Source of the DNA: Nitrospinaceae bacterium
GTDB lineage: Bacteria; Nitrospinota; Nitrospinia; Nitrospinales; JACRGP01
Assembly: GCA_029261555.1 (NCBI GenBank)
Contig: JAJDBB010000075.1
Span: 44,786-108,785 of the forward strand
Length of the DNA: 64,000 bases
Direction of reading: 5' to 3'
The translations under genes were made by a program, and so were the position numbers. Each line of letters starts with the position of its first letter. Within the stretch, counting starts at the first letter, position 1. Positions 10,562-31,513 of this stretch are shown piece by piece. The notes beneath the pieces were generated by a model. That model was not told the DNA's origin, made no database searches, and saw nothing but the letters and a program-made list of their open reading frames with translations.

Positions 10562-11842
10562 TTAAAGCTTCTCAAGCAGTTTTTGTTTTCTCTGCTGATA
10601 TTCAGCCTCGGAAATTATTTTTTTATTTTTCAGCCCTTTAATATAGCGCAACTTATTTTTTAAAACCGCATAGTCAACCGTCTCATTTTTCGGGACGCCG
10701 CTTTTTTCAGGAGGCGACAGGCTGGAGTCCGGACTTTCCGTCGAGATATCCGGCTCGTCGGCAAAATCGCCAACGCTGTTTTTAACCGGTTCATCATCCA
10801 CTTTGAACAAGCCTTTTTGCGGAAGTCCCGCAATCTTTCCAGCGATATTTCCTCCCGACGTATCGTCGTCGTAAAGCGTCCTTTCGATGAAAGCCGCCTT
10901 TCTCAATTCCGCCAGCCATTCCTTAAATTCATCTTCCCTTTTTGACTGGAAAAGAATATTTTCAATTTCCTTACGGACCTCTGAATACAATTTGGTATGG
11001 CCAGGAATGATTTTTATGGTCCGAATGATATGCAAACCATTCTGGGTTTCGACAACGTCGCTGGTCCCGCCGGGTTCCAATCTGAAAGCGGCGTCTTCAA
11101 ATTCCGCCACCATTTTCCCTTTTTCCAACACGCCCAGCTCTCCGCCGGCGCTGGCGGAGATATCTTCAGAATATTTTTTAGCCATTTCGGCAAAGTCCGC
11201 GCCCCTTCGTATCTTCTTCAAAACCTCCCTGGCCTTGGCGCGCTTGAGGTTTTTATGTTGAAGGGTGGTATCTCCGTCGAAAATAAACAATATATGGCGC
11301 AGGCTTCTTTTCTCCGGGATCCAAAAATCCTTGCCGTGCTCTACGTAATATTTTTTCATCGCCTTTTCGCTGACCTTGATCCGGGTGCGGAGTTGGTAGG
11401 AAAGGGTTTTGGACTTCATGATCTGCTTGCGCAGGCGCTTTTTGTATTGTTCCAAAGAAAGGCCTTCGCGCTTCAGGACTTCTTCCAGGGTTTTATCGTC
11501 CCAATTGTTTTTGGACTTTAAATCGTCCACAGCTTTTTGGATGATACTTTCCGAAACTTTTAAGCCTAACTTTTCTCCGCTTTGCACCTGCAACAATTCG
11601 TCGATCAATCGTTCCAGAGCAAACTCCATCACGGCCCTTTCGCTATCCAGGGAGTTTTCCATAGCCTTTCCAGTTTGATGGAGAATGGCGGCTCGCTCCT
11701 GAACGGAACTAAGAGTGACGATGTCCTCGTTGACCTTGGCCACAATCCGATCCAGAATGACTGCTTCGGCGCCGCGAACGACGGACCAGAAACAAAACGC
11801 CGCTACAAGTCCGTATTTAATTAATTTGCTCAAGGGTCGCAT
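10562..11842 (-). CDS. Periplasmic chaperone / parvulin-type peptidyl-prolyl isomerase (SurA-like) with SHOCT-like C-terminal tail
   Basis: Signal peptide (AAFCFWSVVRGAEA), SurA-N-like region (ILDRIVAKVNEDIVT) and a parvulin domain (RHILF...GGELGVLEKGKMVAEFEDAAF...QNGLHIIR). The C-terminus is LKNKKIISEAEYQQRKQKLLEKL. Confidence 0.85.
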   Translation of the reverse strand: MRPLSKLIKYGLVAAFCFWSVVRGAEAVILDRIVAKVNEDIVTLSSVQERAAILHQTGKAMENSLDSERAVMEFALERLIDELLQVQSGEKLGLKVSESIIQKAVDDLKSKNNWDDKTLEEVLKREGLSLEQYKKRLRKQIMKSKTLSYQLRTRIKVSEKAMKKYYVEHGKDFWIPEKRSLRHILFIFDGDTTLQHKNLKRAKAREVLKKIRRGADFAEMAKKYSEDISASAGGELGVLEKGKMVAEFEDAAFRLEPGGTSDVVETQNGLHIIRTIKIIPGHTKLYSEVRKEIENILFQSKREDEFKEWLAELRKAAFIERTLYDDDTSGGNIAGKIAGLPQKGLFKVDDEPVKNSVGDFADEPDISTESPDSSLSPPEKSGVPKNETVDYAVLKNKLRYIKGLKNKKIISEAEYQQRKQKLLEKL

Positions 11843-12797
11843 AATTTATCTTTATATCCGCTTTATTTTTGATTCCCAGCAACCAATCCTTGAACGCCTT
11901 ACCCTGGCGTTCCAGAACCATTTTTTTGAAAATATTTTTTTTCGACTCGGGAAATTTCATTTTTCGTTCGGGTCGCTTGTCGACCACCTTGAAAATATGA
12001 TACCCGTGAGGGGTAAAAATCACCTCGCTCAAGGCGCCTTTCTTCAGGTCGAACAGGCTGTCGAATTCCTCCGGCATCTGCCCCTTTTCAAAGTACCCGA
12101 GATCGCCTCCCCGGGCGCCCTCGGGACCTCGGGAATTCAGACGGGCCAACTCCTTAAAGTCGCCTTTTTTTTTCTTCAATTGGGCCAAAAGTTTTCTAGC
12201 TTCGGTTTCAGTTTCCACCATGATATGAAGCGCGCGGATTTCCTCGCCTTTTAAAAACTCCTCCGGATGATTTTCAAAATAATCCGCCAACTCATCCTCC
12301 CCAACCGTTACCTTACTATCCACCACTTGCTCGATCAATTTTTTTATAAGAAGCAAGTTTTTAACCTCGTTCTCCCATTCGCTAACGGTCATTCCCTGAA
12401 GTTTCACATAGGTTTGAGTAGAATCCGGAGATTCGTCTTCGCGCATATCCGCCAGAGTTTTTTCGTACTCTTCGCGGTTGAGTTTCACCTTAAGTTTTTT
12501 CGCTTCCTGAATCAGCAGTTCATCGCGAATCATCTGGTTGAGGGTATGCGTCTTGAGCCAGATAATTTTTTCCGGAGTCAACGTATCTTTTTTCGCCCGA
12601 TAAACGTTTTTAACGTATCGTAGTTTCTTTTCAAATTCCGTCCGTACAATTTGGCGACCGTTGACCTTCGCCACTCCGGAAAAATTCTGATCCTTTAATG
12701 GATTTGCGGTTTCAGCGCGATCCAGAAGAGCCACAAAAAAAAGAATCCAGAATAGTAAGATTACCCTGGGATATAACTTATTTTTCTTCGACGTCAT
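11817..12797 (-). CDS. Parvulin-type peptidyl-prolyl cis-trans isomerase (PrsA/PpiD-like), secreted or membrane-anchored
   Basis: N-terminal hydrophobic segment. Parvulin core IRALHIMV...GGDLGYFEKGQMPEEFDSLFDLKKGALSEVIFTPHGYHIFKV. Confidence 0.85.
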   Translation of the reverse strand: MTSKKNKLYPRVILLFWILFFVALLDRAETANPLKDQNFSGVAKVNGRQIVRTEFEKKLRYVKNVYRAKKDTLTPEKIIWLKTHTLNQMIRDELLIQEAKKLKVKLNREEYEKTLADMREDESPDSTQTYVKLQGMTVSEWENEVKNLLLIKKLIEQVVDSKVTVGEDELADYFENHPEEFLKGEEIRALHIMVETETEARKLLAQLKKKKGDFKELARLNSRGPEGARGGDLGYFEKGQMPEEFDSLFDLKKGALSEVIFTPHGYHIFKVVDKRPERKMKFPESKKNIFKKMVLERQGKAFKDWLLGIKNKADIKINYATLEQIN

Positions 12798-15700
12798 GGC
12801 AAGCCTCGTTCAGCAACCGGACCAAATAAAAAATCACGACGTCCAAATCTTTCCGCCACCCTTCCCGCTTAAGACTCAATCCCAGTTGATACTCGGAAAC
12901 CAGTTTTAACTGATCGTCCAATATTCCCGCCAGTTTGGACGACGCAAGCGGGGAGCCGTCGGCGATGGTCATGACCGCCGTGTTTCTCCGCAACAGTACC
13001 TTGGAAATATGCAACTTTTGACATAAAAGTTTTACCCGCACCAACGCGATCAACTTTTCCGCGGAATCGGGAGGAGTTCCAAAACGATCCGACCACTCTT
13101 CGGCAAGCGGTTCCAGATACTCCAGATCGACCAGTTGCATCCTGCGATAAGCCTCCAGCCTTTGGTTCAAATCCGGAATGTAGTCTTTTGGGATATAACC
13201 CTTCACTTCCAGATTAATTTCCGGCTCGAAAATACTTTCGACCTTTTTTCCTTTAAGTTCCTTGACCGTTTCCTCCATCATCTTGGTGTACATGTCGAAT
13301 CCGATGCTGTTGATGTGACCGGACTGGTTGTGTCCCAGCATGTTTCCCGTCCCGCGAATTTCCATGTCCCGCGCCGCCAGTTGGAATCCCGAACCCAACT
13401 CGCTCATTTCCTCAATGGCGGCCAGCCGCTTTCGGGCCTCGGTGGAAATCGCCATGGCGCCGGGAATCAATAGATAAGCGTAAGCCTGGAGCCGGGACCG
13501 CCCCACCCGCCCGCGCAATTGATAAAGCTGGCTCAGGCCAAATTGATCTGCCCGGTTGATGATGATGGTATTGGCGGATGGGATGTCCAATCCCGATTCA
13601 ACGATGGTGGTGCAGAGCAAAAGGTCGATATCCCGATTGACGAACTGCGTCATGACCTTCTCCAATTGATGCTCCGGCAACTGGCCGTGGGCGACGCCGA
13701 TGCGGATATCGGGCACAATTTTTTTTAGTTTTTCAGCTACGGAGTGAATGCTTCGGACCTTGTTATGAACGAAATAAATTTGCCCGCCGCGCTTGTGCTC
13801 CCGGAGGATGGCCTCCTGAATCAGATGTTCCTCGAACTTCCGAACGTAGGTTTTAATCGCCAGCCGGTCGATGGGCGGGGTCTCGATCACGCTCAGGTCG
13901 CGCACGCCCATCAGGGAAAAATGCAGGGTCCGCGGAATCGGCGTCGCCGTCAACGTCAATACGTCGGCGGACAAGCGTAATTCTTTCAGTTTTTCTTTGT
14001 GGCGCACGCCAAACCTTTGCTCCTCGTCGACGACGACCAGACCAATGTTGGCAAACTCAACGTCCTTCGACAGCAAACGGTGGGTGCCTATGATTACGTC
14101 CAGTTCCCCGCTCTTCAATTTCGCCAGGGTTTTCTTTTGCTCGCCCGGCGAGCGAAAACGGTTGACCATGTCGATGTTCACGGGATAAGGCCCGAACCGT
14201 TCCTTGAACGTGTTGAGATGCTGTTGCGCCAATACCGTAGTGGGCACCAGCACGGCCACCTGTTTCTTATCCTGGACCACGCGAAAGGCGGCCCGCATGG
14301 CGACCTCGGTTTTTCCGTAACCGACGTCCCCACACACCAGGCGATCCATCGGTTTGTCCTTCTCCAGATCCTCAAAAATTTCCTCGATGGCCCGGTTTTG
14401 ATCCTCGGTTTCCTCGAACTCAAACGTGTCGCTGAATTCCTGCGTCAGGATCGGGTTGGCGGGATAGGAATGACCCTCGGCGGTTTCTCTGGAAGCGTAA
14501 AGCTTCACCAGGCCCTCGGCCATTTGACGAATGGAGTCTTTAATCTTCTGTTTCTGCCGCTTCCAGGAAACGCTTCCCAATTTGCTCAAGGGAGGTGGAG
14601 CGTCCTGGGAGCCGATATATTTCTGGATATGGGCCAAACCGTCCATGGGGATATAAAGTTTTTCTCCCTCTGCAAATTGGATCTCCAGAAACTCGCCGCC
14701 GCCCACGCCTGTGGTCAATTCCTTCGTTCCCTCGTACCTGCCAATTCCATAATCAATATGCACTAAAAAATCGCCGATCTTTAAATCCTTGAACCCGCGC
14801 TGGAAACTTTGCGACTTTGGCTTTTTGCGACGCTTTTGTTTTTGCGAACGGCCAAAAATTTCATGCTCGGCTACAAACGCCTCGAACCGACCGTCGATAG
14901 AAAATCCCGAACTGAGTCGCCCCGGCTCCACGCCAACCTCAACGCCGTAATTGTCCAACAGATCCCGAACCCTTTTGACCTGAATCTTAGTGGGGGCTGC
15001 AACGGTAACGGCATTCCCCGCTTCCTTCCATTCCATCGCTTGTTCGGCAAAAGCTTCAAACCGGCCCTGCAACATGGGAGTACGCCTGGCTTCGAATTGA
15101 ACGACATGACCCAGACTCTCCGGCGAAGTCCTAAGAGTGTTGAACCCGATCCTGGCGGATGCCTCCAGACGCTTTAATAATTCTTCTCTGGGCATGTACA
15201 ATTTTTCCGGTTCCGGGACGGCGTTCTGTTCATCCAGGGAATGCTCGTACTCCGCCTGCACCAGATTTTCAAAATCCTGTACATTCGACAGGAGAAGCTC
15301 CTCCTCGTCCAGGACGATCAACGTCTCCGGCGGCAGATAGTCCAGCAGGGTTTTCATGTCGGAATAAAAAAACGGCGCGAGCGTTTCCATGCCGGAAAAA
15401 TTCCCCAGCCATTGAAGCTTGTCAGACAACTCCTTAAAAGCGTGCTCCTCGGTATGGTGCTGTTTTGCAAACGCGCGGATATTTTTCAGCCCCTGTTCCT
15501 TTTCGGCGGCGGAAAGGCATAGCTCCCGGACCGGAAGTATTTTGGTCTCCTGGATTTCCTTGATGGAGGTCTGCGAATCCAGATTAAAGACGCGAATCGA
15601 TTCCACCTGGTCGCCAAAAAATTCAATACGGACGGGATTGGAATGCGAGGGCAGAAAAACGTCCAGAATATCGCCGCGCAGGCTGAACTCGCCGCGTTCC

Positions 15701-16230
15701 TCTACCAGAGAAGCGCGGGTGTAGCCATTGTCCATCAGGCAGGTCTCCAGAAATTCACGCTCAATGGAATCCCCCGATTTTATAGGAAAGGTCAACTTGC
15801 CGAGGGTTTCCATGGAGATCACGCGTTGCATGAGCGCCTCCACGGGGGCGATTAACAAGGGAACTTTCCCCGTCGTCAATTGATCGAGGATTTCCAAACG
15901 TTCGCCGCTGATTTCGCAAAGCGGCGACAACGGCTCGTAAGGCGTCAATTCCCAGGAAGGAAAAAAGCGCGGTTCCAGCTTGATTTTCTCCCGGCGGGCA
16001 AAAAACTGAATATCGCCCAGCAGAGACTCCCCGGACAAAGGATCGGCGGAGACAACGAGTATGGGGCGCGAAAGCTTTTTGTAGAGTTGGCTCAGTACCT
16101 GGGCGCGGGCCGCCGGCGGCAAGCCTTCCAGCAAAAGCTTTTGACCGGGCGCGTTCAGGCGGTCTACGACCCTTTGCAGTTTTTCGTCAAATGTTTCGGT
16201 TTCGAATTTGGAATCGAGGGCTTGCGGCAT
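12778..16230 (-). CDS. mfd: Transcription-repair coupling factor
   Basis: 1150 aa. UvrB-homology N-terminus, CarD-like RNAP-interaction region (FQRGFKDLKIGDFLVHIDYGIGRY), SF2 motifs GDVGYGKTEVA, VVDEEQRFG and TLTATPIPRTL, plus a TRCF C-terminal domain. Confidence 0.97.
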   Translation of the reverse strand: MPQALDSKFETETFDEKLQRVVDRLNAPGQKLLLEGLPPAARAQVLSQLYKKLSRPILVVSADPLSGESLLGDIQFFARREKIKLEPRFFPSWELTPYEPLSPLCEISGERLEILDQLTTGKVPLLIAPVEALMQRVISMETLGKLTFPIKSGDSIEREFLETCLMDNGYTRASLVEERGEFSLRGDILDVFLPSHSNPVRIEFFGDQVESIRVFNLDSQTSIKEIQETKILPVRELCLSAAEKEQGLKNIRAFAKQHHTEEHAFKELSDKLQWLGNFSGMETLAPFFYSDMKTLLDYLPPETLIVLDEEELLLSNVQDFENLVQAEYEHSLDEQNAVPEPEKLYMPREELLKRLEASARIGFNTLRTSPESLGHVVQFEARRTPMLQGRFEAFAEQAMEWKEAGNAVTVAAPTKIQVKRVRDLLDNYGVEVGVEPGRLSSGFSIDGRFEAFVAEHEIFGRSQKQKRRKKPKSQSFQRGFKDLKIGDFLVHIDYGIGRYEGTKELTTGVGGGEFLEIQFAEGEKLYIPMDGLAHIQKYIGSQDAPPPLSKLGSVSWKRQKQKIKDSIRQMAEGLVKLYASRETAEGHSYPANPILTQEFSDTFEFEETEDQNRAIEEIFEDLEKDKPMDRLVCGDVGYGKTEVAMRAAFRVVQDKKQVAVLVPTTVLAQQHLNTFKERFGPYPVNIDMVNRFRSPGEQKKTLAKLKSGELDVIIGTHRLLSKDVEFANIGLVVVDEEQRFGVRHKEKLKELRLSADVLTLTATPIPRTLHFSLMGVRDLSVIETPPIDRLAIKTYVRKFEEHLIQEAILREHKRGGQIYFVHNKVRSIHSVAEKLKKIVPDIRIGVAHGQLPEHQLEKVMTQFVNRDIDLLLCTTIVESGLDIPSANTIIINRADQFGLSQLYQLRGRVGRSRLQAYAYLLIPGAMAISTEARKRLAAIEEMSELGSGFQLAARDMEIRGTGNMLGHNQSGHINSIGFDMYTKMMEETVKELKGKKVESIFEPEINLEVKGYIPKDYIPDLNQRLEAYRRMQLVDLEYLEPLAEEWSDRFGTPPDSAEKLIALVRVKLLCQKLHISKVLLRRNTAVMTIADGSPLASSKLAGILDDQLKLVSEYQLGLSLKREGWRKDLDVVIFYLVRLLNEACHDVEEK

Positions 16231-16280: not shown

Positions 16281-16646
16281 TTAACCCAGTGGATCTTCCG
16301 GAATCAGATGTTCCCATTTCGGGTCGCCCTTGGGCTTGAAGTTCACGGTAACAATGAAGGAATCGCCTTCATAAAAATTGAGCTTAAAATTTCCGCCGCC
16401 GAACTGCTCATAAATGTATTGTTCTGGCCGGTCCTTCCACTGCTCAAAATCTTCCAACCTGTATTTGGCGATTTCGTAGAAAACGATAATACTGCCTTCG
16501 AAGACGCCGACCAGTAGAGTCAGGCGCACTCGGCTGTATATCTCACCAAAACGCGCGTCCATTTCCTCCTGGCTGGGATCGCGTTTTAATTCACGACGCA
16601 GTTTGGGCTTGTAATAATCCCGGAATTCTTTTTGTACCCAGAACAA
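16281..16646 (-). CDS. Hypothetical protein (start uncertain; non-ATG start in ORF track)
   Basis: 121-aa ORF between the fibre locus and mfd on the same strand. One hydrophobic stretch (LTLLVGVFEGSIIVFY). No recognisable motif and no clear RBS. Confidence 0.45.
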   Translation of the reverse strand: MFWVQKEFRDYYKPKLRRELKRDPSQEEMDARFGEIYSRVRLTLLVGVFEGSIIVFYEIAKYRLEDFEQWKDRPEQYIYEQFGGGNFKLNFYEGDSFIVTVNFKPKGDPKWEHLIPEDPLG

Positions 16647-16747: not shown

Positions 16748-17509
16748 TTATCGCCGACGCTCGGCAAGCGGGTCTATTTTTTCAAATCCCAGTGGAATCT
16801 GAGGCGGCTTAGAGAGGCCGACCTGGCTGAGGTATTCATCAAAAGCCGGGTCTTCATAAATTTCTTTAGGGATCGGCAGGCTTCGCCTTTTTGTATAATG
16901 GCTCCTCCCTTCTTCCTCACCGTCAATGGGCAAGCCATATTTCTTTTTGAACTCATCGGGAATGTCCACATTACTATCCAGCAGATAATTCATGATCGCC
17001 GGTTCCATGAACACATGCGATGGCAGTTTGGCCAGGGGATGGTCGGGATAAATCTCTTCCGGTTTGGGCAGAGGCGGCGGGCGAACCCAACGTTTTTTGC
17101 CCTTGGGCTCCAGAGAGGCTCGCCGTTCCGCCGGCGCGGCCTTGCCAACAACCTTCCGCGAGGCCGACGAAGCGGGTACGTACTGGCCGATACCGGTGAT
17201 CTTGATCTTGCTCCCGGCGATTTTTTCGTTCCACAACTCAACTTTGGAAAAATCGCGCAACAATTTCTTAACCAGCGCTTTCCAATCGGGAGCGCTGATC
17301 TCTACGGTGACAGGCGTCTCGTTCAACTCCTCGCGCAGGGAAAATTTTATGCCGCTTTTCTCGCCGATGGACTGCAACACCTTCGATAGTGGCTGGTTGA
17401 TGGATTTGAAATGGACGCCGTCTTTGTTCTGCTTTAGTTCAAAGTCCGCCGCCATGACGGGATGGACCAGGAATAAAAAAAGAAGTAGGGCCAGTAGCTT
17501 CATACGCAT
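16748..17509 (-). CDS. Secreted fibre-partner protein, copy 1 (STN/FecR-C-like N-domain, Pro-rich linker, conserved C-domain)
   Basis: Signal peptide MRMKLLALLLFLFLVHPVMA. The N-domain INQPLSKVLQSIGEKSGIKFSLREELNETPVTVEI...WKALVKKLL fits the secretin/TonB-receptor STN pattern. Followed by KKRWVRPPPLPKPEEIYPDHP. Close paralogue of 21238-21990. Confidence 0.8.
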   Translation of the reverse strand: MRMKLLALLLFLFLVHPVMAADFELKQNKDGVHFKSINQPLSKVLQSIGEKSGIKFSLREELNETPVTVEISAPDWKALVKKLLRDFSKVELWNEKIAGSKIKITGIGQYVPASSASRKVVGKAAPAERRASLEPKGKKRWVRPPPLPKPEEIYPDHPLAKLPSHVFMEPAIMNYLLDSNVDIPDEFKKKYGLPIDGEEEGRSHYTKRRSLPIPKEIYEDPAFDEYLSQVGLSKPPQIPLGFEKIDPLAERRR

Positions 17510-17520
17510 GGTCTATTTAC

Positions 17521-17585
17521 CTGATTTTACTGGATTGCTTCACGGAGCCTGTCCTGAGCTTGCCGAAGAGTTCGCAATGACGTAA
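17521..17585. repeat. REP/MITE-like palindromic element (ggattgcttc ... tcgcaatgacg family)
   Basis: ctggattgcttcacggagcctgtcctgagcttgccgaagagttcgcaatgacg has ATTGC/GCAAT termini. A second member with the same termini is at 19010-19050. Lies between the fibre A terminator and partner 1. Confidence 0.5.
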
Positions 17586-17591
17586 GGAAAA

Positions 17592-17628
17592 AAGCCGGGC
17601 GGGGGAAAACGATCCCCCCCACCCGCTA
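17592..17628 (-). terminator. Rho-independent terminator-like hairpin directly after fibre gene A
   Basis: Minus strand reads AGCGGGTGGGGGGGATCGTTTTCCCCCGCCCGGCT followed by TTTTTTCC. The same hairpin family follows fibre genes B and C. Confidence 0.65.
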
Positions 17629-17636
17629 GGTTAGAT

Positions 17637-18896
17637 TTAAAAGTCCTCAATCAAACCGCCGGCCGCCCAATCAAAGTTGGCAGGGGCGAAACGTACCAAC
17701 CCGCCGCTTACGCTGGAAGAGGTTCCGAGGGCGCTTCCCTGTTTTCCGCCGCTGACACTGGAATTAAGTCCAGAAGCGGAATTTAAGTTTCCGCCGCTGA
17801 CACTGGATTCAATGCCGGAGGCGGTATTAGAGAATCCGCCGCTTACGCTGGCAGAAGGTCCGGAAGCTATGTTCGATGTTCCACCACTGACACTGGAGGT
17901 GACGTCAAAGGCAATATTCAATGCCCCGCCACTGACGCTGGATATAGCGCCGGAGGCGGTACTTGATTTTCCACCGCTGACGCTGGCTTGAACTCCAGAA
18001 GCGATATTAAAGGTGCCTCCGCTGATGCTAGAATCCGTTCCGGAGGCTAGGTTGGAGTTTCCGCCGCTAACAATGGAGTACAATCCACTAGCGGTATTTT
18101 GTCTTCCACCCATGACCGAGGCATAAGCATTTGAGGAAATGTTATTCAGCCCAGCGACAATGCTTCCGTAGCTAGAATAGTTTGCGCCTTTGCCAGCAAT
18201 CAAGTTGTGCGAACCGGTCTTAATATTACCAAAAAGGTCGTTGACCTCGTTGTAACCAATAAAGAGGTTGCCGAGTCCGTTGACGGAACCGTCTGTGTCG
18301 CCAGAACCATCCACAATTTGCAAGTTCATGTTGGTGAATAGCAGGCGGTCGAAACCATTGGCGTCGGTGTCGCGCGTGACTCCGCTGAAACGGTCTTGAA
18401 GTTCCGTAATATCTGCTTCCACAAACGTCAGGTCGGCTGCTGCGCCATCTGCTCCGTCGGCGCCATCTGCTCCATTGGCTCCCGCTGGACCGGTCAAACC
18501 AATCGGTCCAATCAGTCCTTGTGGACCAGCAGGTCCAGCGGGACCGGCGACGCCTTGAATACCCTGTACCCCATCTACCCCGTCAGCGCCATCTGCTCCA
18601 TTGGCTCCCGCTGGACCGGTCAAACCAATCGGTCCAATCAATCCCTGCGCTCCGTCGTTTCCATCAGCTCCGTCAGCGCCATCAGCGCCTGCTGGGCCCT
18701 GCGGGCCGGGGGTCAGTTGAATGTTATCCAATTGAGTCTGGAGACTAGCTACCAAAATTTGAAGCGCGGCTACTTGTTGCGACAGGCTGTTACCATTTCC
18801 ATTTCCGTTCCCATTTCCCGCTTGGGCATTTGCCCCGACGAACAACAGGCTGACCATTAAAACCATGGCCATTTCAGTTTTGAGAATGCGTTTCAT
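17637..18896 (-). CDS. Secreted collagen-like / beta-repeat fibre protein, paralogue A (419 aa)
   Basis: Cleavable-looking signal peptide (VGANAQA/GNGNGNGN) and coiled coil [24 protein letters not shown]. Uninterrupted G-X-Y from about aa 64 to 151 (18444-18707). Conserved neck [34 protein letters not shown]. About 11 repeats of the 15-aa unit SSVSGGxxNxASGxx, then a C-terminal DWAAGGLIEDF. Confidence 0.9.
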   Translation of the reverse strand: MKRILKTEMAMVLMVSLLFVGANAQAGNGNGNGNGNSLSQQVAALQILVASLQTQLDNIQLTPGPQGPAGADGADGADGNDGAQGLIGPIGLTGPAGANGADGADGVDGVQGIQGVAGPAGPAGPQGLIGPIGLTGPAGANGADGADGADGAAADLTFVEADITELQDRFSGVTRDTDANGFDRLLFTNMNLQIVDGSGDTDGSVNGLGNLFIGYNEVNDLFGNIKTGSHNLIAGKGANYSSYGSIVAGLNNISSNAYASVMGGRQNTASGLYSIVSGGNSNLASGTDSSISGGTFNIASGVQASVSGGKSSTASGAISSVSGGALNIAFDVTSSVSGGTSNIASGPSASVSGGFSNTASGIESSVSGGNLNSASGLNSSVSGGKQGSALGTSSSVSGGLVRFAPANFDWAAGGLIEDF

Positions 18897-19007
18897 TTAA
18901 CCCCCAATTCAAATAAAGAAATATAATTTGATGAATCAATCAAGTTGGAAAATATATATAAATTTCGGTTTATTATTTTCAATAAATAATCTGCGGCTCT
19001 TCATTTT

Positions 19008-19236
19008 TTTCTGGATTGCTTCGTCACTTCCGTTCCTCGCAATGACGCATGGACCGTCGTCGCGAGCGACCCACCGGCGAAGCTCCGGGTTATTATTCCC
19101 CCCTGCAAGGGGGGCGAGGGGGGTTGTTTCTCTAAAATTTTCAATGGTCGTCGGGTAGCAGTTTCAAAAAGAAAAACCGATCCATCAAATTTCTTAAAGG
19201 AAGAATCACCCCAACCCTCTTTGCAAGAGGGAGCAA
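19008..19236. repeat. Cluster of GC-rich palindromic (REP-like) elements occupying the slot where a partner gene would be expected after fibre gene B
   Basis: Contains ggattgcttcgtcacttccgttcctcgcaatgacg, the palindromes cccccctgcaagggggg/cgagggggg and ccctctttgcaagaggg. The ORFs here (e.g. 19001-19312) translate to the low-information ...ASLRGTEVTKQS / PLQGG peptides typical of such repeats. Confidence 0.55.
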
Positions 19237-19270
19237 AGCCGGGCGGGGGAAAACGATCCCCCACCCGGCT
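19237..19270 (-). terminator. Terminator-like hairpin after fibre gene B (weak U-tract)
   Basis: Minus strand reads AGCCGGGTGGGGGATCGTTTTCCCCCGCCCGGCT followed by TTGC. Homologous to the hairpins at 17592-17628 and 22027-22060. Confidence 0.5.
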
Positions 19271-19278
19271 ATTTGGAA

Positions 19279-21036
19279 TTAAAAGTCCTGAAACAATCCA
19301 CCAGCTCTCCAATCATCAAGGCCCGAGGCGGTACGCCCGGTGCCACCGCTCACACTAGATTCGAGACCAGAGGCCGCATTGAAATGACCGCCACTAACGC
19401 TGGATTCTTGGCCTGTGGCATTGTTACCATTCCCACCACTGACACTAGCGCGGCGTCCAACTGCGGAATTTTGAATTCCGCCACTGACGCTGGACTCCAC
19501 TCCAGAGGCGGCATTATCACTTCCGCCGCTGACGCTGGACCTGCTTCCGGAGGCGATATTAGTGATTCCCCCGCTGACGCTGGAAACTTCTCCGGAGGCG
19601 GTGTTAAATTGACCGCCACTGACGCTGGAACCACCTCCATCGGCACTACCATTGTCCCCCCCGCTGACGCTGGAATTAGTTCCGAAGGCTGTGTTAATAC
19701 TACCGCCGCTGACGCTAGCGAGGTCGCCGGAGGCGGAGTTTAAGACGCCGCCGCTGACGCTGGAAGCGGCGCCGCTAGCGTCTCCCCGGTCCCCGCCGCT
19801 GACGCTGGAATTAATTCCGGAGGCGGTGTTAACGCTTCCGCCGCTAACGCTGGAATTAATTCCGGAAGCAGTGTTTGATAAACCGCCGCCGACGCTGGCA
19901 AAATCGCCGATGGCCTGGTTGGCATCGCCGCCGTTAACGCTTGAGTTAAACCCAGAGGCGATGTTTCGGATCCCTCCGCTGATGCTAGCGAAATCGCCGG
20001 TGGCCTGGTTGCGTTGTCCATTCGTAACCGAGGCGTAAGTTCCCGACGACACGTTGTTCAGCCCGGCGACAATACCGCCATAACTGGAATAATTGAGTCC
20101 TTTACCTACAACCAGATTATGGGAACCGCTCTTGTCATTGGCAGGCAATCCACCGCCGAGGAACGGGAAAATATCCTCGTTGTAGCCGATAATTACGTTG
20201 CCGGTTCCGTTGACAATACCATTAGTATCGCCGGACCCATCAACAACCTGCAAATTCATACCGGTGAATAGCAGACGGTCGAAGCCGTTAGCGTCCGTGT
20301 CGCGCGTGACGCCGCTTAGACGGCCTTGCAGTTCAGTAATATCCGCTTCCACAAGAGTCAGATCCGCGGCCGCACCATCGGCTCCGTCAGCTCCATCGGC
20401 GCCATCGGCTCCTGCCGGGCCGGTCAATCCAATCGGCCCGATCAATCCTGGCGCTCCATCGGCGCCATCAGCTCCGTCTGAACCATTAGCTCCTGCAGGT
20501 CCGGTCAATCCAATCGGTCCAATCAATCCTTGTGCGCCATCTGCTCCATCAGCGCCGTCTGAACCATTAGCTCCTGCGGGTCCGGTCAAACCAATCGGTC
20601 CGATCAAACCTTGTGCGCCATCTGCTCCATCAGCGCCGTCTGAACCATTAGCTCCTGCGGGTCCGGTCAAACCAATCGGTCCAATCAATCCTTGCGCCCC
20701 GTCGGCTCCATCCGCTCCATCTGCGCCGTCATTCCCTGTTGGTCCTTGAGGTCCAGCGGGGCCTTGAGGGCCGGGCGTCAGTACTATGTTTTCCAATTGA
20801 GTTTGCAGGCTGGCCACCAAGGCTTCGAGTTCGGCGACACGATGCTTCAAGCCGTGTTTTTTCCCATGACCTTTTTTATCATCGTCGTCATCATCGTGGT
20901 CCTTATGTTTTTTCTTGGCGTACGCCACTCCGGTCCACTGGGGGTCGTCAATTACTAACCCCGCCCCCAGTTGCACGAACAAAAACAAAAACGCCAAGCC
21001 AAAAACCAGCGCCGATTTCTTCAATTGGACATTCAT
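19279..21036 (-). CDS. Secreted collagen-like / beta-repeat fibre protein, paralogue B (585 aa)
   Basis: N-terminal hydrophobic segment [21 protein letters not shown], charged box [22 protein letters not shown] and coiled coil [22 protein letters not shown] from aa 89 to 221 (20374-20772). Same neck as A, about 16 SSVSGG-type 15-mers and a C-terminal DDWRAGGLFQDF. Confidence 0.9.
   Translation of the reverse strand: MNVQLKKSALVFGLAFLFLFVQLGAGLVIDDPQWTGVAYAKKKHKDHDDDDDDKKGHGKKHGLKHRVAELEALVASLQTQLENIVLTPGPQGPAGPQGPTGNDGADGADGADGAQGLIGPIGLTGPAGANGSDGADGADGAQGLIGPIGLTGPAGANGSDGADGADGAQGLIGPIGLTGPAGANGSDGADGADGAPGLIGPIGLTGPAGADGADGADGADGAAADLTLVEADITELQGRLSGVTRDTDANGFDRLLFTGMNLQVVDGSGDTNGIVNGTGNVIIGYNEDIFPFLGGGLPANDKSGSHNLVVGKGLNYSSYGGIVAGLNNVSSGTYASVTNGQRNQATGDFASISGGIRNIASGFNSSVNGGDANQAIGDFASVGGGLSNTASGINSSVSGGSVNTASGINSSVSGGDRGDASGAASSVSGGVLNSASGDLASVSGGSINTAFGTNSSVSGGDNGSADGGGSSVSGGQFNTASGEVSSVSGGITNIASGSRSSVSGGSDNAASGVESSVSGGIQNSAVGRRASVSGGNGNNATGQESSVSGGHFNAASGLESSVSGGTGRTASGLDDWRAGGLFQDF
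20458..20700 (-). repeat. Three near-perfect 81-nt in-frame tandem repeats inside the collagen region of fibre gene B
   Basis: The marker gtctgaaccattagctcctgc recurs at 20476, 20557 and 20638 (period exactly 81). Each unit encodes [27 protein letters not shown] (27 aa, 9 G-X-Y triplets). Confidence 0.9.
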
Positions 21037-21128
21037 TTTACTTTCCCCCTCGGATGGTTCAAATATTGGAAAACATTTATAAAATCTCAGTCTAGGACTG
21101 CAAAAAACAAATACTTTCCTACGTATAA

Positions 21129-21157
21129 ATTAGAAAGCCATTGGCTCGTATTATCAA
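21129..21157 (-). promoter_or_regulatory. Putative sigma-70 promoter of fibre gene B (TTGATA-N17-TCTAAT)
   Basis: Minus strand reads TTGATAatacgagccaatggcttTCTAAT. It sits in a block conserved with the region upstream of fibre gene C (24122-24150). Confidence 0.4.
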
Positions 21158-21237
21158 TATCATAATTACCTCAAATGAGTCATAGAGTTATTCAAACCCC
21201 TTGGGAAAAAAGATCCGCGTGGACACAGCAATAGAAC

Positions 21238-21990
21238 TTATTGCTGTTCCGGGAACTGCGGGGGTTTGGGAAGATTGACCGCGTCGAGGTATTCCTGAAA
21301 GGCGGGATCGTCGTAGATATGCGGCGGGATAGGATAAATCTTGCGGGGAATCTCGGCAACCTCCTCCTCGCCATCCCCATCCCCATAGACGTCCAACCCG
21401 TATTTCTTCTTAAACTCGGGAGGAATGTCCACCTTGCTCTTCAATAAATAGTCCATGACCGCCGATTCCATAAAAATATGCGTCGGCAGTTTGGCCAGGG
21501 GGTGGTCGGGATAAATCTCTTCGGGTTTGGGCGGAGGCGGCGGGCGGACCCAACGTTTTTTGCGCTTGGACTTCCCGGAAAGGTCCAGCTTGGCCTGCGA
21601 TTGCCCGGACGCGTCGCCGGAAACAGCCTTCGACGGCGACGGGGCGGTTCCCGGCACGTACTGGCCAATACCGGTGATCCTGATCCGGCTCCCGGCGATT
21701 TTTTCGTTCCACAACTCGACCTTGGAAAAATCGCGCAACAATTTCTTCACAAGGGCTTTCCAGTCCGCCGCCTCAATTTCCACAGTGACGGGCGTCTCGT
21801 TTAACTCCTCGCGCAGGGAAAAGTCTATGCCACTTTGCTCGCCGATCGCTTGCAAAACTTTAGACAGCGGCTGGTCCACCGCATACAATTGGACCCTCCC
21901 ATGGTTCCGGGTCAGTTCAAAATTGTCGTCCCCAAAAACCGGAGCGGCGAACAAACAAACGCTGAAAATTATTAGAAACAACAGGCGCAT
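21238..21990 (-). CDS. Secreted fibre-partner protein, copy 2 (STN/FecR-C-like N-domain, Pro-rich linker)
   Basis: I place the start at the ATG at 21990 (MRLLFLIIFSVCLFAAPVFG signal peptide) by analogy with copy 1. The ORF track starts at an upstream TTG (22008). VDQPLSKVLQAIGEQSGIDFSLREELNETPVTVEI... and KKRWVRPPPPPKPEEIYPDHPLAKLP are nearly identical to copy 1. Confidence 0.8.
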   Translation of the reverse strand: MRLLFLIIFSVCLFAAPVFGDDNFELTRNHGRVQLYAVDQPLSKVLQAIGEQSGIDFSLREELNETPVTVEIEAADWKALVKKLLRDFSKVELWNEKIAGSRIRITGIGQYVPGTAPSPSKAVSGDASGQSQAKLDLSGKSKRKKRWVRPPPPPKPEEIYPDHPLAKLPTHIFMESAVMDYLLKSKVDIPPEFKKKYGLDVYGDGDGEEEVAEIPRKIYPIPPHIYDDPAFQEYLDAVNLPKPPQFPEQQ

Positions 21991-22026
21991 GGTTTTATTG
22001 TAACCCAATGCAAAAGTTAAAGGAAA

Positions 22027-22060
22027 AGCCGGGCGGGGGAAGACGATCCTCCGCCCGGCT
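22027..22060 (-). terminator. Rho-independent terminator-like hairpin between fibre gene C and partner gene 2
   Basis: Minus strand reads AGCCGGGCGGAGGATCGTCTTCCCCCGCCCGGCT (10-bp GC stem) followed by TTTTCCTTT. It lies 9 nt after the fibre stop and about 36 nt before the partner ATG. Confidence 0.7.
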
Positions 22061-22068
22061 AGTTGGAT

Positions 22069-24024
22069 TTAAAAGTCCTCAATCAAACTACCGGCCGCCC
22101 AGTCATAAGGAGCCGGGGCGAAACGCGTAAACCCTCCGCTGACGCTGGAAGCGTCGCCGATGGCGCTTCCCTGGTCTCCGCCGCTAACGCTGGAATTTAT
22201 CCCGGAGGCGGTATTTGAGCTTCCGCCGCTAACGCTGGATCTAATCCCGGAGGCAGTGTTCTGAAATCCGCCGCTAACGCTGGAACGGCTTCCAGAAGCG
22301 ACGTTAAGTTCTCCGCCGCTGACGCTTGAATTGTCGGAGGACGCGGTGTTAGCGCTTCCGCCGCTAACGCTGGAATTATTTCCGGAGACTGTATTAGAGC
22401 TTCCGCCACTGACGCTGGAATTAATTCCGAAGGCGGCATTTGTAAATCCCCCGCTGATGCTGGAACCGGGACCGGAGGAGAAGTTATCGGCCCCACCACT
22501 GACGCTGGAATAAAAATCGTCGGCTTCGTTTCGGAACCCGCCGCTGATGCTGGATTGAATGCCGGAGGCAGTGTTCTGAAATCCGCCGCTGACGCTGGAG
22601 TTAAGTCCAGAGGCAACGTTAAGTTCTCCACCGCTAACACTAGATTCAGTGCCCGAGGCGATATTAGAGATTCCGCCGCTGACGCTGGAGTTAAGTCCAG
22701 AGGCGACGTTAAGTTCTCCACCGCTAACACTAGATTCAGTGCCTGAGGCGGTATTAGAGAATCCGCCGCTGACGCTGGCAGAAGGTCCGGAAGCTGTGTT
22801 CGATGTTCCGCCACTGACACTTGAGGTAGGATGGGAAGCAATATTAAATGCCCCGCCGCTGATGCTGGATCCAAAATCGGAAGCGGCATTAGATACTCCA
22901 CCGCTGACGCTGGAAGCCTCGCTCCATGCGGTATTTAAACTCCCGCCACTGACGCTAGCGAAATTGTGGATGGCACGGTTGCGTTCGCCGCCGGTGACCG
23001 AGGCGTAATATCCCCCAGCAACGTTGTTCAGTCCGGCGACGATTCCGCCGTAGTAGGAATAATTGAGTCCTTTACCCACCACCAGATAGTGAGAACCGGA
23101 CTTGTCACTCGTCGGATTATTTCCGCGGAACGGGAAGATATCCTCGTTGTAGCCTATGATAACGTTGCCGACTCCGTTAACGACTCCATCGGTATCGCCA
23201 GAACCATCAACAACCTGCAGGTTCATGCCGGTGAACAGCAGACGGTCGAACCCGTTGACGTCCGTATCGCGCGTGACGCCGCTGAAACGGCCTTGCAATT
23301 CCGCGATATCCGCTTCAACAAGAGTCAAGTCCCCGCCGCCGGTACCCGCCGGACCCTCTGGTCCTATGGGACCAATCGGTCCAATGGGTCCTATCACTCC
23401 TTGAATACCCTGAGCTCCATCTGCTCCATCCGAACCATCAACTCCGTCGACTCCCGCCGGTCCGGTCAACCCAATCGGCCCGATCAATCCTTGTGCGCCA
23501 TCGGCTCCATCCGCTCCGTCCGATCCATCGGCTCCTGCCGGACCGGTCAAACCAATCGGTCCAATCAGTCCCTGTGCGCCATCGGCTCCGGCAGGTCCGG
23601 TCAAACCTATCGGTCCGATCAATCCTTGTGGTCCAGCGGGTCCAATAGGACCAACCGGCCCTATAGGTCCTTGTGCGCCATCGGTGCCATCGGCTCCATC
23701 AGTTCCATTCGTTCCCGCGGGACCCTGCGGTCCAGTTGGACCAGGATCGCCTTGAGGGCCGGGAGTCAGTTGGATATTATTCAGTTGAGTTTGAAGACTC
23801 GCGACAATATCCTGGAGTTGCGCGACGTTACGTTTCAATTTTTTTATCGTTCGATTTCCTTTTTTATCATCATCGTCATCGTCGTGGTCCTTGCCATTTT
23901 TCTTGGCGTACGCGACGCCGGTCCATTCGGGATCGTCAATGACAAGCCCGCTTCCCATCTGAACAAATAAAAACAGAAACGCCAGGCCAACTACCTGCAA
24001 CGATTTCTTCAATTGGATATTCAT
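22069..24024 (-). CDS. Secreted collagen-like / beta-repeat fibre protein, paralogue C (651 aa from the ATG at 24024)
   Basis: The start [42 protein letters not shown] aligns with the paralogue B start and follows the shared GAGGGGGAAGG RBS; the ORF-track start at 24117 adds 31 unsupported residues. Charged box [11 protein letters not shown] and a coiled coil follow. G-X-Y from aa 89 to about 230 (23335-23760), then the neck, about 20 SSVSGG 15-mers and a C-terminal [12 protein letters not shown]. Confidence 0.9.
22578..22757 (-). repeat. Two near-identical 90-nt in-frame tandem repeats in the beta-repeat region of fibre gene C
   Basis: gacgctggagttaagtccagaggc[ag]acgttaagttctccaccgctaacactagattcagtgcc occurs at 22591 and 22681 (period 90). 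Each unit encodes [30 protein letters not shown] (two 15-mers). Confidence 0.85.
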
Positions 24025-24121
24025 TTTACCTTCCCCCTCGGATGGTTCAGATATTGGATAAATTTTTATTCGTGAAAAACTGATGATAAATGCACGCTTA
24101 AGATGATAAATATACATTTAA

Positions 24122-24150
24122 AGTAGAAAGCCGTTGGACTGTATTGTCAA
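24122..24150 (-). promoter_or_regulatory. Putative sigma-70 promoter of fibre gene C (TTGACA-N17-TCTACT)
   Basis: Minus strand reads TTGACAatacagtccaacggcttTCTACT, about 95 nt upstream of the ATG. The surrounding block (agtagaaagcc.ttgg.ct.gtatt.tcaatat..taattacctcaaa) is conserved upstream of fibre gene B. Confidence 0.45.
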
Positions 24151-24333
24151 TATTTTAATTACCTCAAACAGGTCACATTCGTGTCACATTTATGACCGGT
24201 TTATAAATACAATTCAATTGCCTTGAAAATCCCCTTGTTATAGCGCCGGAATCGGAGATCCAAATAAAAAAAATTAAACTACTACCCGAGATTTCTAATT
24301 TGAAGTCTTCACCAACCCATGGAGTAGGTATGA

Positions 24334-24391: not shown

Positions 24392-25279
24392 ATGAACATG
24401 GCAAATACAACCCAGGTCACTCTGGGCCTGATACAAACAACCTGCTCGCCTGAAAAGCAAAGCAACCTGGAGTCCGCCGAGAAACAGATTCGCGAAGCGG
24501 CCAGTCAAGGCGCGCAAATTATTTGCCTGCAGGAGTTGTTTCTCACTCGATACTTTTGCCAACGGGAGGACGCGGAGAATTTTGCCCTGGCGGAAACCAT
24601 TCCCGGTCCAGCGACTGACAAACTGTGCGCGCTGGCGAAGGAACTGGAAACGGTGATCGTCGCCCCTCTTTTTGAAAAGCGGACGCAGGGAATTTACCAC
24701 AACTCTGCCATTGTCATCGACTCCGACGGAACGGTCGCCGGGCGCTACCGCAAAATGCACATTCCGGACGACCCGGGGTTCCACGAAAAATTTTACTTCA
24801 CGCCGGGCGACCAGGGGTTCGTCAGCTTTCAGACCCGCTATGCGCGAGTTGGGGTTTTGATTTGCTGGGACCAATGGTTTCCCGAAGCGGCGCGATTGAC
24901 CGCGTTGTCTGGCGCGCAGATTCTTGTTTATCCCACCGCCATCGGTATTCGTCCGGAGGACCGCGAGGAGTCCGTTAAGCAAGCGGCGGCCTGGAAAACT
25001 ATTCAGAAAAGCCACGCTATCGCCAACGGTGTTTTTGTCGCCAGCGCCAACCGCGTGGGCCGGGAGGACGATATTGAATTTTGGGGGCAATCGTTTGTGT
25101 GCGACCCCTTTGGCGAACTGCTGGCCGAGGCGGGAGACGGCGGGGAAGAAATTTTGATCGCGCAATGCGATTTGGACCTCATCGAATCGACCCGCCAAAA
25201 CTGGCCGTTCCTGCGCGACCGACGCGTCGACGCCTACAAGGATATAGGGAAACTCTACCTTGACCCCGACGCCTCCTGA
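24392..25279 (+). CDS. aguB: N-carbamoylputrescine amidase (carbon-nitrogen hydrolase family)
   Basis: Nitrilase-superfamily Glu/Lys/Cys contexts (ICLQELF, YRKMHIPDDPGFHEKFYF, VLICWDQWFPEAAR). Immediately followed by agmatine deiminase. The 278-aa antisense ORF (24362-25198) has no motif support. Confidence 0.9.
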   Translation: MNMANTTQVTLGLIQTTCSPEKQSNLESAEKQIREAASQGAQIICLQELFLTRYFCQREDAENFALAETIPGPATDKLCALAKELETVIVAPLFEKRTQGIYHNSAIVIDSDGTVAGRYRKMHIPDDPGFHEKFYFTPGDQGFVSFQTRYARVGVLICWDQWFPEAARLTALSGAQILVYPTAIGIRPEDREESVKQAAAWKTIQKSHAIANGVFVASANRVGREDDIEFWGQSFVCDPFGELLAEAGDGGEEILIAQCDLDLIESTRQNWPFLRDRRVDAYKDIGKLYLDPDAS

Positions 25280-26327
25280 GCCGCCCTTCCCCGCCGGGCT
25301 GGGGTATTACATGCCGGCGGAGTGGGAACCTCATTCTGCCACCTGGCTGACCTGGCCGCACAATCCCGAAACCTGGCCGGGCGTAAACCTGGCGGAAATT
25401 GAATCGGCGTACGTCCGTATGATCGGCGCCTTATGCGGCGGCGAACGTATTTGCATTCTGGTCAACGACGCGGAAACGTCGCAAGCGGTTACGGCAAAAC
25501 TTTTGGCGGGAAACCTGCCTCTGCAAAATATTGATCTGCACGTCGTCCCCACTAACGACGCCTGGATACGCGACTACGGACCCAATTTCCTTATAAATCC
25601 TGAAGGTCCCGACAGCGTCGCCTTTAATAAGTGGGGATTCGATTCCTGGGGCGGAAAATATGAATACGACTTGGACGATCGAGTCGGCCACGTCCTGAAA
25701 AATTTGCTGAGCGTTCCGGCGTTTGACCCCGGAATTGTTTTTGAGGGCGGCGCAGTGGAGGTCAACGGCAATGGAACCTGTCTCGTCACGGAAGAATGTT
25801 TGCTGAATAAAAACCGCAACGGCGGATTGAGTCGGGAGGTTATGGAAACGTATTTAAAAAACTACCTCGGCGTTCGGCAGGTAATCTGGCTTCATGGCGA
25901 CTTGCAGGGGGACGATACGGACGGGCACATCGACAATCTAGCGCGTTTTGTAAATCCAAATACCATTCTGTGCGCGTTGCAGGAAGACCCCGCCGACCCT
26001 GATTATTCCTGCCTGCAAGAAAATTTTAGAATTTTAAAATCCGTGCTCGACCCGGATGGAAAACCTTTTGACGTGGTTCCGCTCCCCATGCCAAAAGTAG
26101 AGAGCGGAGGCGAAATGCTTCCGGCCAGTCATGCCAATTTTTATATCGGGAACGAGGCGGTTTTACTGCCGATATACGGCGGGGACAGCGACGACAAGGC
26201 CGCCGCGCTGCTGGAGAAATTTTTTCCAGATCGCAATGTGGAACGGATTGACTGCCAATCTTTGGTTATAGGACTGGGCGCCGCGCATTGCCTCACGCAA
26301 CAACAGCCTGCTAGTCCAAAAACTTAG
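25260..26327 (+). CDS. aguA: Agmatine deiminase
   Basis: MPAEWEPH, TDGHIDNLARF and the catalytic-Cys C-terminus GLGAAHCLTQQQP. The start is either the TTG at 25260 (overlapping aguB) or the ATG at 25311. Confidence 0.9.
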   Translation: MTPTPPEPPFPAGLGYYMPAEWEPHSATWLTWPHNPETWPGVNLAEIESAYVRMIGALCGGERICILVNDAETSQAVTAKLLAGNLPLQNIDLHVVPTNDAWIRDYGPNFLINPEGPDSVAFNKWGFDSWGGKYEYDLDDRVGHVLKNLLSVPAFDPGIVFEGGAVEVNGNGTCLVTEECLLNKNRNGGLSREVMETYLKNYLGVRQVIWLHGDLQGDDTDGHIDNLARFVNPNTILCALQEDPADPDYSCLQENFRILKSVLDPDGKPFDVVPLPMPKVESGGEMLPASHANFYIGNEAVLLPIYGGDSDDKAAALLEKFFPDRNVERIDCQSLVIGLGAAHCLTQQQPASPKT

Positions 26328-31489: not shown

Positions 31490-31513
31490 AATCTTCACCT
31501 CCACCTAGTACTA

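Follow-up and report, generated by a model that had tools for sequence, protein, structure and literature searches.

Collagen-stalked fibers with trimeric-autotransporter-type heads and a small predicted periplasmic partner protein: a candidate fiber-display module in Nitrospinaceae

How can a fiber that carries the head of a trimeric autotransporter adhesin (TAA), but no autotransporter barrel, be displayed by a bacterium? Such heads are classic modules of virulence adhesins and are generally assumed to depend on a C-terminal barrel of their own for surface display. The question is raised by a locus in a Nitrospinaceae bacterium (assembly GCA_029261555.1, contig JAJDBB010000075.1, positions 44,786 to 108,785; this stretch of 64,000 nucleotides is called the window below), in which three paralogous fiber genes are interleaved with two paralogous genes for small exported proteins, here called partners. 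The five open reading frames (ORFs) of the initial annotation were all recovered in place on the minus strand, in the following order:

22069-24024, minus strand: fiber C, 651 aa, in an ORF that stays open as far as 24117
21238-21990, minus strand: partner 2, 250 aa
19279-21036, minus strand: fiber B, 585 aa, with no partner behind it
17637-18896, minus strand: fiber A, 419 aa
16748-17509, minus strand: partner 1, 253 aa

The start of fiber C was placed at the ATG at 24024 because this codon is preceded by the same GAGGGGGAA Shine-Dalgarno sequence and leader as fiber B. The initial annotation could assign the module to no described class. Its fiber can now be described as a TAA-type (UspA1/YadA-like) head on a collagen stalk, that is, as a rearrangement of known modules. 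It is an inverted, anchorless TAA-like molecule, with no barrel anchor and with the head at the C-terminus.

The order of parts from the N- to the C-terminus is a Sec signal peptide, a short segment, a coiled coil, collagen, a helical neck, a beta-roll head, and a cap. In fibers B and C, the signal peptide is followed by a conserved LVIDDPxWTGVAYA segment and then by a Lys/Asp-rich stretch; in fiber A, it ends AQA and is followed by (GN)5. The coiled coil of about three heptads, which would set the trimer register, runs straight into uninterrupted Gly-X-Y (GXY) triplets, 30 in fiber A (nt 18438-18707), 45 in fiber B (nt 20368-20772), and 48 in fiber C (nt 23329-23760). A long uninterrupted GXY region next to a trimerization element, here the heptad coiled coil, is the generic hallmark of bacterial collagen-like proteins. 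The region matches Pfam Collagen above the cut-off (E = 1e-14 to 7e-21), contains little Pro (10-15%) and much Gly, Ala, and Asp, and corresponds to a stalk of roughly 26-41 nm. Most of the collagen of fiber B is built of an 81-nt unit, encoding 27 aa or nine GXY triplets, that is repeated four times in tandem (20336-20799). The units are 74-100% identical to the reference copy and are a likely hotspot for variation in stalk length.

The head consists of repeats of strictly 15 residues, SSVSGGxxNxASGxx, about 20 in fiber C and about 16 in fiber B. The proteins stop 11 residues past the last repeat, and all three end DWxAGxLxxDF, as originally reported (DWAAGGLIEDF in fiber A, DWRAGGLFQDF in fiber B). 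In sequence searches, the repeats match the head of Moraxella UspA1 (3pr7_A, E = 4.2e-16) and the Lolium ice-binding (ice recrystallization inhibition) beta-roll (3ult, E = 2e-5). The neck and head of fiber A (residues 152-419) were modeled by AlphaFold2 with 57 homologs, yielding an N-terminal helix and a regular beta-roll with a predicted local distance difference test (pLDDT) score of 92 and a predicted template modeling score of 0.80. The top PDB neighbors of this model found by Foldseek are UspA1 (E = 2.8e-6), Fusobacterium CbpF, the AtaA Ylhead, and the YadA-like head of BoaA. By sequence and fold, then, the head is a left-handed beta-roll of the trimeric-autotransporter type, homologous to TAA heads. 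We consider the architecture described here very probable.

Two relatives vary this plan. A fiber ortholog at L001 (4575-6452) has, between collagen and neck, about 16 ATNASGI heptads of the N@d type, in which Asn takes a core position as it does in the stalks of TAAs; compared with the DWxAG cap, the final ~50 residues of this ortholog seem to be frameshifted. In Candidatus Nitrohelix vancouverensis (L015, 14682-15503, minus strand), a second collagen-like protein, which has no partner, begins as fibers B and C do, with a signal peptide, DPxxTxVAFA, a Lys/Asp-rich stretch, a coiled coil, and GXY triplets, and continues into an unrelated C-terminal domain. The sequence of this protein suggests a common base with exchangeable tips.

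Neither the fiber nor the partner belongs, over the whole protein, to a curated family above threshold. At E <= 1, the only Pfam matches of the fibers are Collagen, LbR_Ice_bind (sub-threshold), and UspA1_rep; neither YadA_anchor nor another C-terminal domain is found. The NCBIfam collagen-adhesin models score 48-97 bits against cut-offs of 325-500, on the GXY part only. There is no N-terminal beta-barrel, the 40-85 residues before collagen being taken up by the signal peptide, a charged segment, and the coiled coil.

The fibers are members of a large family. Their non-collagen part retrieves more than 2000 proteins, nearly all annotated as hypothetical, from Deltaproteobacteria, Gammaproteobacteria, Nitrospinota, and other groups, and most of these end DWxAGxLFxDx. 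Collagen occurs in very few members, the usual stalk being a coiled coil, and the N-termini vary from a plain signal peptide to a lipobox, a membrane helix, or an SLH domain. The common plan is an envelope-proximal N-terminus, a trimeric stalk, a neck, a beta-roll head, and a cap, which is a TAA reversed. Tandem arrays comprise five fibers in Candidatus Nitronauta litoralis and three in a deltaproteobacterial metagenome-assembled genome (MAG). Some members occur in mobile contexts, since two divergent membrane-anchored genes of the family (L008, 4038-5504 on the minus and 6001-7308 on the plus strand) adjoin an IS110 transposase and a phage-type integrase. A literature search for Nitrospina collagen-like proteins or anchorless TAA-like fibers found no description of either.

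The second component of the module is the partner. Partners 1 and 2 match no family in Pfam or NCBIfam, STN included. Their layout is a signal peptide, an STN/N0-like domain, a Pro/Lys-rich linker, and two short helical repeats; in partner 1, these are a signal peptide ending VMA, the STN/N0-like domain at residues ~22-105, a disordered linker at ~105-148, and a helical C-terminal domain at 150-240. With ends of VMA/AD and VFG/DD and no Cys, the signal peptides lack a lipobox. A word-indexed search yielded only seven close relatives; an exhaustive profile search yielded 234 representative clusters (84 with E <= 1e-10), of which almost all are 200-270 aa long and have the same layout. The named relatives are all from Nitrospinota. 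In addition, a contig attributed to a Mariprofundaceae MAG carries one partial relative, and a divergent, apparently frameshifted partner stands at a contig end (L014).

The AlphaFold2 model of the partner has a mean pLDDT of 66, rising to 70-81 in the N-domain. Its reasonably confident parts are residues 22-105, with the order beta-beta-alpha-beta-beta-alpha, and residues 150-240, with short helices and two PPHφφxDPxφxxYL repeats. Foldseek neighbors of the N-domain in PDB are the N0 domains of secretins (InvG, MxiD, EscC, GspD, PilQ), the signaling domains of FecA and PupA, the STN domain of PupR, and DotD, with a probability of 0.97-1.0 for the best twenty, a root-mean-square deviation of ~3 Å over 71-79 columns for the closest, and E = 0.01-0.3. 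In BFVD the top match is pIV of phage f1. Pfam STN (PF07660) matches five of 28 members of the partner family, at best with E = 2e-4 and 21.5 bits, below the cut-off of 28.4. A PDB search with the partner profile gave PilQ N0 domains as the best match at a marginal E of 0.1; another PDB profile search with a partner alignment gave KH domains at a marginal E of 0.3. Structure, Pfam STN, and the PilQ N0 profile are three weak but convergent lines that point to an STN/N0-like N-domain. For the C-terminal domain, no convincing structural match was found in PDB or BFVD. The partner, at 250 aa, has no Secretin match in Pfam, and its C-terminal part is predicted to form short helices, not a pore domain. 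In distant relatives (P0152, P0216, P0261, P0263, P0262), the STN-like domain occurs in fusions with signal peptidase S26, with four PASTA domains, with metallopeptidases of the reprolysin type (FG-GAP repeats accompany one of them), or with HEAT repeats. Because of these fusions to peptidase, PASTA, and FG-GAP modules, the partner-type domain looks like a general extracytoplasmic docking module.

The two components are linked beyond the window. Wherever upstream sequence exists, a full-length partner gene is immediately preceded by a fiber gene in the same orientation. This holds for seven independent places, two in the window and one each at L001, L003 (a Nitrospinae MAG), L009, L010, and L015/L016 (Ca. 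Nitrohelix vancouverensis). The flanking genes of the linked pairs differ between genomes. The two-gene module proposed in the initial annotation is thus real. At L009, the partner is paired with a fiber whose stalk is a coiled coil, and a collagen-specific role of the partner was rejected on this ground. A further locus shows the module in decay. In Nitrospinaceae OFTM96 (L002/L004, JAJDBG010000024, 9995-10498), a partner remnant lacking the N-terminal 90 residues has no fiber, and a gene with a RelA_SpoT domain occupies the place. The flanks are syntenic with those of the intact L003 module, which indicates that the fiber was lost and the partner decayed together. The association has limits in both directions. 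Most members of the head family have no partner, including the five Nitronauta fibers, and distant partner paralogs stand alone in housekeeping contexts, for example beside FxsA and cytochrome-c-like genes. The fiber and partner families therefore co-occur only within one sub-branch.

The signals around the genes suggest how much of each protein may be made. The relevant elements in the window are as follows:

17596-17625, minus strand: intrinsic terminator with a 13-bp GC stem and a T-run, between fiber A and partner 1
19237-19270, minus strand: matching terminator hairpin, 3' of fiber B
22027-22060, minus strand: matching terminator hairpin between fiber C and partner 2, ending only ~37 nt short of the start codon of the partner
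21037-21182, minus strand: upstream region of fiber B, with a strong Shine-Dalgarno sequence (GAGGGGGAAAGTAAAATG) and a promoter-like block, TTGATA-N17-TCTAAT, at 21120-21182
24025-24175, minus strand: upstream region of fiber C, with the Shine-Dalgarno sequence and leader as in fiber B and a paralogous promoter-like block at 24113-24175

The GC hairpins with a T-run that follow all three fibers in the window are almost identical, in agreement with the initial annotation. Such a hairpin separates fiber and partner in every linked pair, with stem sequences that differ between genomes, and the partner genes begin 37-90 nt past the fiber terminator. The ribosome-binding sites are strong on the fiber genes and weak on the partner genes. 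From the intervening terminator and this difference in ribosome-binding sites, the partner is predicted to be made in far smaller amounts than the fiber, and it would be transcribed mostly by terminator read-through. The ribosome-binding site, leader, and promoter-like block that fibers B and C had been reported to share are indeed common to both; the upstream block spans 63 nt, is 79% identical, and by eye contains a sigma-70-like TTGAYA-N17-TCTAMT, while no sigma-54 or sigma-28 promoter motif was seen in it by eye.

Based on these observations, we propose that the locus encodes three paralogous Sec-exported homotrimeric fibers, together with a small accessory protein that is likewise exported by Sec and is present in two copies. 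Each fiber would be a homotrimer of ~35-55 nm with its N-terminus near the envelope and its head turned outward as a distal, binding tip that is adhesive or matrix-forming. At the corresponding position, other family members have an N-terminal lipobox, membrane helix, or SLH domain. The partner would serve in the periplasm as an adaptor for docking, export, or anchoring by way of its STN/N0-like domain, and would connect the trimer, once folded, or its base at the N-terminus with a channel in the outer membrane or a structure of the envelope. It would be present at low abundance and not as a stoichiometric fiber subunit. The repeats of the A/B/C array (the 81-nt collagen units, the 45-nt head units, and a patch of 95% identity between A and C described below) would give scope for variation of length and surface by recombination. 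An anchorless, inverted TAA-like surface fiber with a low-abundance periplasmic docking or export adaptor is, on balance, the best explanation overall. A function of the fiber as a surface adhesin or matrix component is likewise somewhat favored, and the adaptor role of the partner is put forward only tentatively.

The readings that compete with this proposal concern either the fiber or the partner. Homology of the head to TAA heads, and the name trimeric autotransporter adhesin that JGI gives to a few relatives, could suggest a conventional TAA (type Vc) or an inverse autotransporter, which is hardly credible for proteins that have neither a C-terminal YadA-type barrel nor an N-terminal one, that end so soon after the last repeat, whose head is C-terminal to the stalk, and whose partner is predicted to be alpha/beta and not a barrel. 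Membership in type Vc is refuted, as the head fold agrees and the YadA anchor and the head-before-stalk order do not; the 40-85 residues before collagen likewise leave out the N-terminal barrel of ~250 aa that inverse autotransporters (type Ve) require. If an unlinked gene provided a barrel in trans, the mechanism would be a new one and would not count as type Vc. A sortase-anchored collagen adhesin (Scl1/Scl2 or Lcl) was rejected on the scores below the NCBIfam cut-offs and on the DWxAGxLxxDF C-termini without LPXTG. The tail fiber and assembly chaperone of a prophage or tailocin are brought to mind by PHROG tail-fiber matches with E down to 2e-30 and by the gene order, a fiber followed by a small gene as in tail fiber and Tfa. 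Yet the PHROG matches lie only in the collagen triplets, except for phrog_819, which reaches the head repeats of fiber C, and the partner has none; the head and neck and the partner are unmatched in 50,697 phage genomes (tblastn); and both proteins carry Sec signal peptides. The 26 window ORFs scanned (not every ORF of the 64 kb) include no phage, sortase, autotransporter-anchor, or secretion-system gene, consistent with the initial annotation, and neither they nor the related loci include phage genes; the neighbors of the block are housekeeping genes. A phage origin is therefore very improbable and largely refuted. It is also quite unlikely that the fibers are secreted or remain in the periplasm and use the regular Ser/Thr/Asn-rich faces of the beta-roll to bind ice, minerals, or polysaccharide, in the manner of an ice recrystallization inhibitor, or that they are structural elements of an enlarged periplasm. 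The likeness to the Lolium beta-roll extends to fold as well as sequence and is accompanied by the LbR_Ice_bind match, no membrane anchor is identifiable, and the acidic Gly-Ala-Asp-rich collagen and poly-Asp segments could bind cations; but TAA heads are matched much more strongly than the plant protein, a stalk of 26-41 nm is typical of proteins that project a tip off a surface, and relatives have cell-envelope anchors at the N-terminus.

A different objection is that the partner has nothing to do with the fibers, being a general Nitrospinota periplasmic STN-domain protein of which one paralog happens to lie beside self-sufficient fibers. The stand-alone paralogs in housekeeping contexts, the absence of a partner from fiber B and the five Nitronauta fibers, and the terminator between the two genes all speak for it. 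We nevertheless regard it as unlikely: adjacency, order, and strand are kept at seven places despite wholly different flanks and with both stalk types, collagen and coiled coil; loss of the fiber was accompanied by decay of the partner at L002/L004; and the partner was duplicated along with the fiber in the window. Several observations weigh against the proposed fiber and adaptor as well. The location, trimerization, and adhesion of the fibers and their contact with the partner are all predictions. The evidence on the partner fold is weak, given its Foldseek E values (0.01-0.3), STN matches below the Pfam cut-off, and the mean pLDDT of 66. The partner is not generally required, because fiber B and the Nitronauta fibers, the latter with plain signal peptides, lack one; the Nitronauta case also weakened the idea of the partner as a substitute for a missing covalent anchor. 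The core function of the partner family need not concern fibers, because its distant paralogs stand alone. No secretin or other export channel was identified among the 26 window ORFs scanned (not every ORF of the window), and the mechanism does not account for the route of a folded 35-55 nm trimer over the outer membrane.

Comparison with known systems shows where an anchorless fiber with a docking partner would stand. With TAAs such as UspA1, CbpF, YadA, and AtaA, the fibers share the Sec signal peptide, the obligate-trimer rod, and the left-handed parallel beta-roll head. Unlike the fibers, TAAs have a C-terminal 12-stranded barrel, a head that precedes the stalk, a coiled-coil stalk, and a 14-residue repeat, here of 15 residues; the export route of the fibers may also differ. 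The barrel anchor is the only sequence-conserved, defining part of TAAs (PMC7247746). Small Sec-exported proteins encoded beside a TAA are known to help display the fiber or to anchor it mechanically from the periplasm, TpgA with AtaA (PMC13082670) and SadB with SadA (PMC3953254). As a small dedicated Sec-exported protein encoded beside its fiber, the partner may play a loosely analogous role; it has no sequence or domain kinship with them, no OmpA-like peptidoglycan-binding domain or lipobox, an STN/N0-like predicted fold, and no TAA barrel to bind.

The collagen-like proteins Scl1/Scl2 of Streptococcus, Lcl of Legionella, and BclA of the Bacillus exosporium resemble the fibers in combining an uninterrupted, hydroxyproline-free GXY spacer with a globular domain, which is also C-terminal in BclA and Lcl. 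Here, however, this domain is a TAA-type beta-roll, not C1q-like or an Lcl C-domain, and LPXTG is absent. The MAT fibers of Bdellovibrio are Sec-exported, barrel-less trimers with many paralogs, for which the N-terminus was proposed to be at the surface with variable C-terminal tips outward, and whose export and anchoring are unresolved (PMC10769870). They share a beta-rich N-terminal domain of ~130 aa after the signal peptide, have phage-spike-like shafts and in some cases an S74 chaperone-protease, and no dedicated partner has been described for them (PMC10769870). The fibers of the window resemble MATs as barrel-less, Sec-exported paralogs with tips predicted to point outward; they differ in a coiled coil that starts 10-60 residues past the signal peptide with no ~130-aa domain, a collagen shaft, and a beta-roll tip, a distinction drawn from the description of MATs, not from a homology search against their sequences.

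STN and secretin N0 domains are periplasmic protein-protein docking modules, and the N0 fold has the order beta-alpha-beta-beta-alpha-beta. The predicted fold of the partner at ~22-105 is that of these domains in PilQ, GspD, InvG, FecA, PupA, the C-terminus of FecR/PupR, and DotD. Unlike those proteins, the partner is a free soluble protein of 250 aa, to which neither a secretin nor a TonB-dependent barrel nor an anti-sigma part is attached, and its C-terminal PPHφφxDPxφxxYL repeats match nothing known.

What is new in this locus is the arrangement of known modules, a collagen stalk and a TAA-type head, within a family that is large, unnamed, and spread over environmental bacteria. To this is added a helper of recognizable fold that is restricted to one lineage. 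If the fibers are surface-exposed, another route of export and anchoring is needed for long pre-folded trimers past the outer membrane, the same question as is posed by the Bdellovibrio MATs, and the partner, which is specific to Nitrospinota, offers a concrete and testable candidate for one component of such a route. A more speculative and rather doubtful extension is that Nitrospinota, and with them the more than 2000 anchorless DWxAG-capped beta-roll proteins of many phyla, show TAA heads by a non-type-V route, the partner in this lineage docking the pre-folded collagen trimer to a secretin-like channel or holding its N-terminal base; if true, non-type-V display with an STN/N0 partner would be a new two-component system of fiber display. 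Adhesive fibers would be relevant to how Nitrospinota, the main marine nitrite oxidizers, attach to particles. For the design of recombinant collagen, an Asp-rich collagen that is free of hydroxyproline and has a defined trimerizing head may be of interest as well. A cultured strain, Ca. Nitrohelix vancouverensis, has the module (PMC8026999).

The history of the array can be read from its internal similarities. Fibers B and C align end to end with fiber A and are 67-68% identical to it, and the partners are 63% identical to each other (E = 8e-100). Against a background of 60-75%, the fiber A and C genes contain a near-identical stretch, 17822-17900 versus 22749-22827, with 75 of 79 positions (95%) identical; the stretch had been noted correctly, with limits off by one nucleotide. 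The corresponding stretch of the partners, 17190-17290 versus 21668-21768, is borne out as well (89% over 101 nt). The duplication had been called recent, which is an overstatement. Partner 2 is closer to its ortholog P0002 from another genome (79% identity) than to partner 1 (66%), and hence the duplication in the window is not very recent; the necks of fibers B and C are 84% identical. Nor does the 382-nt spacer between fibers B and A contain the repeat debris ascribed to it. It holds no degraded partner remnant, and of the shared elements only the terminator hairpin is present. Downstream of this terminator, a second GC-rich hairpin-like element (CCCCCCTCGCCCCCCTTGCAGGGGGG; 19060-19130, minus strand) is unmatched elsewhere in the window.

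The five-gene block is flanked by mfd (12778-16230) on one side and by the genes for N-carbamoylputrescine amidase and agmatine deiminase (24392-26327) on the other. Neither mfd nor the agmatine genes are kept next to the module in other genomes, and they were rejected as its parts. The same applies to a 121-aa ORF at 16281-16646, which has no match in Pfam or NCBIfam and is not conserved beside the module elsewhere.

Collagen folding is limited by prolyl isomerization. Two genes for SurA-like periplasmic peptidyl-prolyl isomerases (10562-11842 and 11817-12797, both on the minus strand) lie directly downstream of mfd, a few kilobases from the collagen genes, and a parvulin gene (L006, 8292-8642) follows the fiber array of Ca. 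Nitronauta litoralis; this is probably an ordinary housekeeping arrangement. Flagellar genes are found near the module or partner paralogs in three unrelated contexts. In the window, genes for FliE (30668-30985, minus strand), a rod protein (31067-31504, minus strand), and a sigma-54 activator with GAF domains (31755-34616, plus strand) lie ~6.5 kb from the block; at L003, a flagellin-like ORF (6838-7707) is 1.1 kb upstream of the fiber; and at L017/L019 (11950-14060), FliD/FliS genes lie ~3 kb from stand-alone partner paralogs. This proximity may be due to chance.

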